Shown: one piece after another, positions 10,185 to 11,020 of the stretch | How the letters are laid out: every line of letters begins with the position of its first letter | Position numbering within the stretch: the stretch's first letter is position 1 | From: a virus | Taxonomy: Duplodnaviria; Heunggongvirae; Uroviricota; Caudoviricetes | Virus record (IMG/VR): IMGVR_UViG_2602041579_000011 | Coordinates: 1-11,880 of that record | Direction: 5' to 3' (one strand) | DNA: 11,880 nucleotides | The notes under the pieces: generated by a model | What the model saw: only the letters and a program-made list of their open reading frames with translations | What the model was told of the DNA's origin: nothing | Database searches by the model: none | Made by a program: the position numbers and the translations under genes

Positions 10185-10198
10185 GTAACAATAGTTAC
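10185..10198. promoter_or_regulatory. Operator-like palindrome GTAAC-AATA-GTTAC in the divergent cro/cI intergenic region
   Basis: Perfect 5-bp inverted arms with 4-bp spacer, 30 bp upstream of the Cro-like start codon. Confidence 0.55.
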
Positions 10199-10232
10199 AT
10201 AACAATGTCAACCATAGCAACATCACTTGGTA

Positions 10233-10246
10233 GTAACATTGGTTAC
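10233..10246. promoter_or_regulatory. Operator-like palindrome GTAAC-ATTG-GTTAC abutting the repressor start codon
   Basis: Same half-sites as 10185-10198; ends 1 nt before ATG 10247. A perfect TTGACA -35 hexamer on the minus strand (plus 10206-10211) lies between the two palindromes. Confidence 0.55.
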
Positions 10247-10921
10247 ATGAAAAACACTATCAGCGAACGTATTCGGAATCGTCGAAAAGACGTTGGATTA
10301 ACCCAACAGCAGGTTGCGAAAGCAATCGGCATATCTCGTGTATCCGTAACAAAATGGGAAAATGGCTCTTCAAAACCTGACGGTGAGAATTTGTATCTAC
10401 TGTCAAAATTGCTTTCCAAATCTCCTGAATGGATTCTTTATGGAAAGGACGGTCACGATAAAGCCGATGATCTGCGTCTGAATCAGTACCCTTACATTAG
10501 TGACAACATCGCCCGGTTGCCCGTTTTAACGTGGGAACAGGCTGGTTATTGGGATATGAGTTGTCCAGTAACCGAGATTCCTGGTATTAAGAATTGGGTT
10601 GATGTCATGACAAAAACCGCTGAAAACTCTTTTTTATTGCATGTTGAGGGAGATGCGATGACAAACTCTAACGGCCTCCCAACCATCCCCGACGGATCTA
10701 CCGTGCTGATCACACCATGCTCAAGTAACATTAGAGAACTGGTGGGAAAAATAATCTTAATCCAATTGGAAGGAACGCCAAACGTAACACTAAAAAAAGT
10801 TGCGATTGACGGACCAAACATCTATCTGTTGTCACTGAATCCGCTTTACAAACCCATCGAACTGAATGGTGGTTACACCATTAAAGGTAAAGTTTCACAA
10901 ATACATCAATACTTAGACTGA
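10247..10921 (+). CDS. cI-like prophage repressor: N-terminal XRE-type HTH plus C-terminal S24 (LexA-like) peptidase domain, with the catalytic Ser position apparently Ala
   Basis: From ATG 10247: MKNTISERIRNRRKDVGLTQQQVAKAIGISRVSVTKWENG... (HTH), linker QAGYW (lambda cI cleavage region is QAGMF), then HVEGDAMT where lambda cI has EVEGNSMT, and later VTLKKV. Starts at 10148 or 10205 would overlap the cro start and operators. Confidence 0.8.
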   Translation: MKNTISERIRNRRKDVGLTQQQVAKAIGISRVSVTKWENGSSKPDGENLYLLSKLLSKSPEWILYGKDGHDKADDLRLNQYPYISDNIARLPVLTWEQAGYWDMSCPVTEIPGIKNWVDVMTKTAENSFLLHVEGDAMTNSNGLPTIPDGSTVLITPCSSNIRELVGKIILIQLEGTPNVTLKKVAIDGPNIYLLSLNPLYKPIELNGGYTIKGKVSQIHQYLD

Positions 10922-10927
10922 GTCAGA

Positions 10928-10951
10928 ACCCGCATTCATTGCGGGTTTTTT
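10928..10951 (+). terminator. Intrinsic terminator after the repressor gene
   Basis: ACCCGCA-TTCAT-TGCGGGT 7-bp stem followed by TTTTT, 7 nt past the TGA stop. Confidence 0.7.
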
Positions 10952-11004
10952 ATGCCCTCAAATGTACCTTTTGCAACATTGTATTGACTCGAAAGGTAAC
11001 TCTT

Positions 11005-11020
11005 GTTACCTTAACAACAT
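11005..11020. promoter_or_regulatory. Operator-like palindrome GGTAAC-TCTT-GTTACC upstream of the plus-strand early genes (OL-like)
   Basis: Same GTAAC/GTTAC half-sites as the two cro-proximal palindromes, extended to 6 bp; a TTGACT hexamer lies at 10994-10999. Confidence 0.5.

Follow-up and report, generated by a model that had tools for sequence, protein, structure and literature searches.

Probable repressor and Cro operators of the GTAAC-N4-GTTAC type in the immunity region of an Escherichia coli lambdoid prophage

In the DNA stretch analysed here, which covers 11,880 nucleotides (nt; positions 1 to 11,880 of the Caudoviricetes record IMGVR_UViG_2602041579_000011 in IMG/VR, hereafter the window), copies of the palindrome GTAAC-N4-GTTAC bracket a phage repressor gene. 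Their number, positions and conservation indicate that these palindromes are very probably (at a probability we put at about 0.85) the operators of the repressor and of Cro in the immunity region of an Escherichia coli (E. coli) lambdoid prophage. The switch is an ordinary one of the P22/lambda type with the geometry of P22 immC, and its new part is the binding specificity, which we did not find described. A literature search found no published description of this operator or of the operators of the phages ZF40, AH07 and vB_EcoS-733R5, which share it as shown below, and a 2025 survey of lambdoid phages gives the operator specificity of a related repressor (that of phage LLS, closest to mEp460_4F5) as unknown (PMC12315714).

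The repressor gene (10247-10921, plus strand, 224 amino acids, stop codon 10919-10921) encodes the Pfam domains HTH_3 and Peptidase_S24. It is divergent from the cro gene (9940-10155, minus strand, 71 amino acids), which belongs to the P22_Cro family (Pfam, E = 3e-16) and is preceded by an AGGAG Shine-Dalgarno sequence; the two genes are 91 nt apart. To locate the palindromes, the strong-site pattern GTAACNNNNGTTAC was searched exactly on both strands of the whole window. There are three matches, as many as an earlier note on this DNA had described around the repressor gene, compared with 0.01 expected from dinucleotide shuffles (0 of 200 shuffles reach three). Allowing up to two mismatches adds only eight scattered matches against 3.6 expected, which is the level of chance. 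Two of the exact copies, the first and third sites of the right operator (OR), lie between cro and the repressor gene: OR1 (GTAACAATAGTTAC, 10185-10198, that is, -62 to -49 from the repressor ATG) and OR3 (GTAACATTGGTTAC, 10233-10246; operator sites are given without strand). Their coordinates and the 48 bp between their centres are those of the earlier note, except that OR3 directly abuts the ATG at 10247-10249, with 0 nt and not 1 nt between them. The remaining exact copy, OL1 of the left operator (OL), had been placed at 11005-11020, about 85 bp past the repressor terminator; the extended site GGTAAC-TCTT-GTTACC in fact occupies 10995-11010 (core GTAACTCTTGTTAC, 10996-11009), about 10 nt further left, and lies about 45 bp past the terminator hairpin and 74-75 bp past the stop codon.

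The three sites stand as two in OR and one in OL, but this count overlooked two weaker ones. OR2 (TCAACCATAGCAAC, 10208-10221) matches at 6 of 10 half-site positions and lies at the conserved position of the middle site, with centre spacings of 23 bp (OR1-OR2) and 25 bp (OR2-OR3). OL2 (GTACCTTTTGCAAC, 10964-10977) matches at 7 of 10 half-site positions and lies just upstream of the -35 element of the putative leftward promoter (PL). A weight matrix built from other loci only, with the window excluded, ranks the three perfect palindromes of the window top (24.3 for OR1, 19.4 for OL1 and 19.1 for the third). OL2, with a score of 10.5, is the fourth-best site in 11.9 kb, where the maxima of shuffled windows have a mean of 5.5 and a standard deviation of 3.7, and it falls exactly at the OL2 position expected from relatives; the OR2 of the window was not recovered by this strong-site matrix. 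The extended operator consensus is ATGTAAC-N4-GTTACAT. In a repeat search of 9450-11250 there were no further convincing sites, and the third OL site that some relatives (L009, L010, L015 and L024) have on the downstream side of PL was undetectable in the window.

To see whether the layout is conserved, we compared loci from 20 species found in a genome scan, 4 assembly contigs and the phages ZF40, AH07 and vB_EcoS-733R5. The repressors of these relatives are 43-70% identical to that of the window. When 26 loci with GTAAC-type operators are aligned on the repressor ATG, OR1, OR2 and OR3 start at -62, -39 and -14. OR1 (-62 to -49) reads GTAAC-N4-G(G/T)TAC and keeps the same offset in 26 of 26 loci; OR2 (-39 to -26) reads CAAAC or TCAAC, N4, (G/T)T(T/C)AC, being CAAAC-N4-GTTAC in most; and OR3 (-14 to -1) is nearly invariant as GTAACATT(G/A)GTTAC with the ATG immediately after it. 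Among the 24 loci left once near-duplicates were removed, mean pairwise identity is 0.91 in the OR1 core, 0.94 in the OR3 core and 0.81 in the OR2 half-sites, compared with 0.64 in the OR1-OR2 spacer, 0.36 in the OR2-OR3 spacer, 0.37 in the segment upstream of OR1 and, within the repressor gene, 0.36 at third codon positions. With cores at 0.91-0.94 and surroundings at about 0.36, the operator sites are thus islands of strong purifying selection in saturated DNA.

The left side also has a regular arrangement. In 22 of the 27 loci searched, OL2 is followed by about 10 nt, a TTGAnn hexamer, 6 nt (7 in L008) and OL1, and the final three bases of OL1 start a TAC(A/C)TT -10 element at 17 nt (18 in L008) from the -35; no such PL-like site was found in the remaining 5 of the 27. 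A strong OL2 is present at the equivalent position in related loci. Moreover, OR3 together with the ATG occurs in at least 120 IMG/VR contigs (1.18 Mb for the 120 examined). Many copies scattered elsewhere, a pattern that the earlier note had held would speak against operators, are not what these contigs contain: 369 of the 376 pattern matches in them lie at OR1, OR3 or OL. The earlier suggestion that the operator is specific to this element does not survive this comparison, for, judged by its sequence and position, it is common to a large family of Enterobacterales phages and prophages across genera, including ZF40, AH07, vB_EcoS-733R5 and the at least 120 viral contigs.

It could be asked whether only the three perfect palindromes function, so that OR would have two sites and OL one, OR2 and OL2 being decayed remnants in a defective prophage. 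OR2 is indeed poor on the strong-site matrix and OL2 scores just 10.5; L029, a relative at 66% identity, shows a perfect OL2 together with an OR2 better than that of the window; and the repressor has lost its catalytic Ser (see below), which fits domestication. On the other hand, middle sites are weak throughout the GTAAC family as well as in P22 and lambda, which fill them through cooperativity; 37 of 40 viral contigs of the window type retain the OR2 sequence of the window, although these contigs are closely related; and OL2 would be a decayed site that still outranks every other place in 11.9 kb save the perfect palindromes, exactly where relatives have it. We therefore consider a reduction to three working sites unlikely, at roughly one chance in four. 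The OR2 and OL2 of the window also carry an identical variant right half, GCAACAT in place of GTTACAT, and the half-site may be weaker by design and not through decay.

The position of OR3 bears on where the repressor begins. RefSeq/PGAP starts the protein at ATG 10205 (238 amino acids, WP_000103686.1), 42 nt upstream and inside OR. Comparison with relatives suggests that the true start is probably ATG 10247 and that the annotated N-terminus is 14 codons too long, running through OR2 and OR3. The ATG following OR3 is kept in 28 of 28 loci examined and homologues of 215-221 amino acids begin at this conserved Met, whereas an upstream in-frame start is absent in 13 of the 28 loci, and a stop at -42 or -21 is seen in many. 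Were 10205 the start, the second palindrome would be codons 10-14 (SNIGY) and would no longer count as an operator close to a promoter, and 10247 would not be the start of the mRNA. Such a start agrees with the PGAP annotation, with the close homologues (66-98% identity) that are likewise called at 238-240 amino acids, and with the in-frame ATG at -42 that 6 of the 28 loci have, the window included. Yet besides the loci that cannot use an upstream start, the 14-residue extension is poorly conserved except for the operator-encoded NIGY; one relative (L030, P0008) keeps the palindrome intact but in another frame, where it reads QVTLVT; the Pfam HTH_3 match would start only at residue 23; the shorter homologues of 215-221 amino acids, and P0009 too, start with MK or MN; and the ATG at -42 overlaps the complement (TGTCAA) of the putative -35 element of the cro promoter. 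Taken together, these make the upstream start improbable, at perhaps a tenth.

A Shine-Dalgarno sequence is absent 5-13 nt before the repressor ATG. As the earlier note had seen, none can fit there, because in all GTAAC-type loci the operator GTAACATTGGTTAC takes up the 14 nt immediately before the ATG, and this lack of room makes a leaderless or near-leaderless mRNA plausible. With OR3 abutting the ATG, the maintenance transcript most likely has its 5' end at the AUG or only a few nt from it, and would be translated without a Shine-Dalgarno sequence; on balance we favour, with some reserve, a leaderless start. There are precedents for this, as the PaaR2 repressor of the YdaS/YdaT prophage CP-933P was found to be leaderless by 5' RACE and N-terminal sequencing (PMC8630535), and the same paper states that lambda cI mRNA is leaderless (PMC8630535). 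A search of the literature for a leaderless P22 c2 found nothing relevant.

That the repressor and Cro both read these sites is suggested by the way in which the proteins and the operator vary together. The recognition helix of the repressor is SRVSVTKWE in 25 of the 26 GTAAC-type loci, the exception being ZF40 with SRVTITKWE. In mEp390 and YeP1 the architecture is identical, down to a 14-bp palindrome that runs right up to the repressor ATG and a further site lying within the spacer and -10 of PL, but the operator is GTAGG-N4-CCTAC and the helices differ, so that they represent a different immunity specificity; their repressor has RVTVTGWE, and their Cro has SGWG where the others have CRWG or VRWK. 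The basic residue before the Trp is thus replaced by Gly in both the repressor and Cro exactly where AAC in the operator is replaced by AGG. This co-variation of helix and operator is the best indirect support for recognition of the sites by both proteins. It also makes it extremely improbable that the palindromes are chance occurrences, generic repeats or sites of another factor unrelated to the repressor and Cro, an explanation already at odds with the shuffled windows, none of which gave three copies, and with positions that are fixed relative to promoters and the ATG in 26 loci and at least 120 contigs.

Promoters were assigned from conserved hexamers, and the terminator was checked by folding. 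On the minus strand, the putative rightward promoter (PR), that of cro, has a -35 TTGACA (10206-10211) and, 18 nt from it, a -10 TACCCT (10182-10187) in which TAC is the end of an OR1 half-site; related loci have TACCTT there. On the plus strand, the putative PL has a -35 TTGACT (10984-10989), an instance of the conserved TTGAnn before OL1, and 17 nt after it a -10 TACCTT (11007-11012), where related loci have TACATT or TACCTT. PR and PL are thus alike in that the strong operator fills the spacer and the -10 takes its TA from it, and the place of OL1 in the PL spacer and -10 is conserved among related loci. For the repressor's own promoter (the promoter for repressor maintenance, PRM), the sole conserved -10 candidate is TAACAT (10234-10239, plus strand), which lies within OR3, 7 nt ahead of the A of the ATG; the -35 of this promoter is poor. 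The final T of TAACAT is invariant in the 26 aligned OR3 sites, although the equivalent base of the spacer is free to differ in OR1 and OL1, and the mEp390 type has TAGGAT where the window has TAACAT. Downstream of the repressor gene, an intrinsic terminator (10925-10952, plus strand) consists of a ten-pair hairpin (10925-10949) followed by a U run; the hairpin folds at -15.8 kcal/mol (z = -4.5), and a consensus terminator scan of 9900-11300 missed it.

From this arrangement we infer how binding, the order of site occupancy, the promoters and the leaderless start would fit together. Dimers of a repressor of the CI/C2 type would occupy OR1 and cover the spacer and -10 of PR, and OL1 would be bound likewise at PL, which would drive the early-left operon that begins with a ydfA-like gene. 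The weaker OR2 and OL2, which flank or overlap the -35 regions, would probably be filled cooperatively. OR3 overlaps the TAACAT -10 and the start of the repressor's own promoter, so its occupation at high repressor levels would lead to negative autoregulation, and OR3 would also be a target of Cro.

Several points weigh against this reading. A consensus promoter scanner called zero promoters in 9900-11300, and the proposed -10 hexamers match the consensus at 3 of 6 positions (TAnnnT), which is why the scanner calls neither PR nor PL. The centre of OR2 lies at -32.5 from the ATG (-34.5 in P22) and not at the activating -42 of lambda, so that stimulation of PRM by the repressor cannot be assumed. 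The weak OR2 and OL2 of the window, with their 6 and 7 matching positions, might be non-functional. Part of the conservation of OR3 may come from promoter or initiation constraints and not from protein binding. Finally, the RefSeq start at 10205 would place OR3 within coding sequence.

The earlier note had compared the region with the OR/OL layout of lambda. This holds as far as operators at the divergent promoters and at PL are concerned, which lie at fixed offsets in the 26 loci, but P22 immC is closer than lambda. The N-terminal domain of the repressor is homologous to that of P22 C2 (E = 1e-12 to solved P22 C2 structures; 36% identity over the whole protein), and the Cro of the window is in the same P22_Cro Pfam family. 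The operators of P22 immC, read from its sequence as ATTAAAGAACACTTAAAT, ACTAAAGGAATCTTTAGT and ATTTAAGATGACTTAACT, have centre spacings of 23 and 25 bp, and the two systems share three OR sites with this spacing, an OR3 abutting the repressor ATG (that of c2 in P22) and a 7+4+7 geometry. The P22 half-site is ATTTAAG or ACTAAAG, and ATGTAAC of the window differs from ATTTAAG at 2 of 7 positions. Judged by the identical spacing, the OR3 that abuts the ATG and this two-position variant of the half-site, P22 immC is the closest model. There are also differences: the site in the window is 2 bp nearer the ATG, whose AT thereby becomes part of the extended site, and a YdaT-family protein takes the position of cII. 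The recognition helices, SNVAISQWE in P22 and SRVSVTKWE in the window, differ at 5 of 9 positions, and neither the half-site A(T/C)T(A/T)AAG nor the helix SNVAISQWE that mark the immunity specificity of P22 and phage 21 is found in the window. With a different half-site and a different helix, the window and P22 should be heteroimmune. Lambda has in common with the window a tripartite operator at divergent PRM and PR and a further set of operators at the PL that lies behind the repressor gene, and its cI likewise has an S24 C-terminal domain (whole-protein match E = 4e-14). Its operators, in contrast, are 17 bp long and of unrelated sequence, its Cro is of a different fold family, and a 10-nt gap between OR3 and the ATG places its OR2 at -42.

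Outside P22 and lambda, the phages ZF40 (of Pectobacterium), AH07 (of Pantoea) and vB_EcoS-733R5 (of E. coli) have GTAAC-N4-GkTAC at OR1, OR3 and OL in the same layout as the window. Their repressors are 42-43% identical to that of the window, are about 219 amino acids long from the conserved ATG and keep the catalytic Ser (GESM or GDSM). Prophage CP-933P of E. coli O157:H7, with its PaaR2, YdaS and YdaT, likewise has a lambdoid switch, after which a YdaT-family protein takes the place of cII (PMC8630535, PMC9986795); its repressor has been shown to be leaderless, and its PL-type promoter bears the same operators as its switch (PMC8630535, PMC9986795). PaaR2 is small (about 15 kDa) and acts with GTTTAGTAA-type repeats, unlike the repressor and operators of the window, and no paaA2-parE2 toxin-antitoxin genes follow the repressor gene of the window. 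The GTTTAGTAA-type motif is absent from OR and OL of the window, and nowhere in the window is there a copy of TTGATT-N6-AATCAA, the site published for YdaT. We therefore rejected an immunity region of the CP-933P type: there are no GTTTAGTAA repeats in OR or OL and no YdaT site, and only the YdaT Pfam domain is shared.

The most unusual trait of the system lies in the C-terminal domain of the repressor of the window. S24 repressors have G(D/E/N)SM, but the GCG codon at 10655-10657 (plus strand) encodes Ala (Ala137, in GDAMTN) at the position aligned with S149 of lambda cI (EGNSMT). Among repressors in viral contigs, Ala is found in 38 of 39 of the 224-amino-acid type of the window, and Ser in 77 of 78 others, which are mostly of the 219-amino-acid type. 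The cleavage site is retained, as WEQAGYWD aligns with lambda VQAGMF (Ala-Gly), and so is the catalytic Lys, which is invariant in the repressor alignment (A1) and lies in TLKKV aligned with lambda TFKKL. LexA S119A provides the analogy for loss of self-cleavage through a Ser-to-Ala change. The Ala in place of the catalytic Ser predicts that this repressor would not undergo RecA-stimulated, SOS-induced self-cleavage. We tentatively raise the possibility, to which we give less than even odds, that the E. coli lineage carries a non-self-cleaving repressor in a domesticated, SOS-blind module that retains the operator specificity of active temperate phages of the ZF40, AH07 and 733R5 type found across genera. 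If this is true, the PR and PL operons, including a dicB-type division inhibitor downstream, would be permanently silenced, and the host would be protected against superinfection by any phage with GTAAC-N4-GkTAC operators. A common prophage predicted to be unresponsive to SOS also matters for induction studies in pathogenic E. coli.

In several related loci (L005, L006, L013, L022, L023, L026 and others) PL is followed by a structured RNA of about 65 nt. In an alignment of this leader RNA from 15 related loci, 15 pairs are predicted, and compensatory changes occur in 7 of these. In the window, only its second hairpin is recognised, as a partial leader RNA at 11087-11123 (plus strand) by the covariance model (R1) when run unfiltered (8.6 bits, E = 0.035 in 501 nt). 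Rfam has no family for it. Neither the covariance model, run against HK022 24500-35000, nor BLAST found a match to the put elements of HK022 (putL/putR), and identification with this type of element is unsupported, though the two may be analogous in function; one guess at the function of the leader RNA is that it is an antitermination RNA.

The genes around the switch are those of a lambdoid prophage. In the cII position of the early right operon lies a ydaT-family gene (9518-9943, minus strand; Pfam YdaT_toxin, E = 7e-10; 'toxin YdaT family protein' in RefSeq), whose product might act at a PRE-like promoter if there is one here, and the first early-left gene is ydfA-like (DUF1391, 11194-11349, plus strand; Pfam E = 4e-28). 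In an O55:H7 relative the left operon goes on with dicB and with genes for an exonuclease and, beside yccA, an integrase. The remainder of the window is the early-right/nin region, with DUF977, an FkbM methyltransferase, hok/sok, DUF968, RusA, Q and four tRNAs. Within the nin region, the hok/sok module includes a complete sok antitoxin RNA (5373-5544, minus strand; Rfam RF01794, 108 bits), and four tandem tRNA genes (796-1102, minus strand) lie downstream of the Q antiterminator gene (1297-1992). A search of the phage nucleotide database gave no close match to the immunity region, and of 5,426 complete E. coli genomes, 702 (about 13%) carry this 1.3-kb region with a coverage of at least 80%.

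The analysis thus defines the operator, the promoter layout and the probable start codon for an immunity type carried by these 702 genomes and by many Enterobacterales phages, and it corrects what is probably a systematic over-extension of the repressor start in RefSeq. The K/R residues that go with AAC and the Gly that goes with AGG form a natural specificity pair, and homoimmunity is predicted for phages that share the recognition helix and the operator, even where their repressors are only 43% identical. Our understanding of how such switches work is unchanged, and what is added is a new specificity inside the P22/lambda paradigm.

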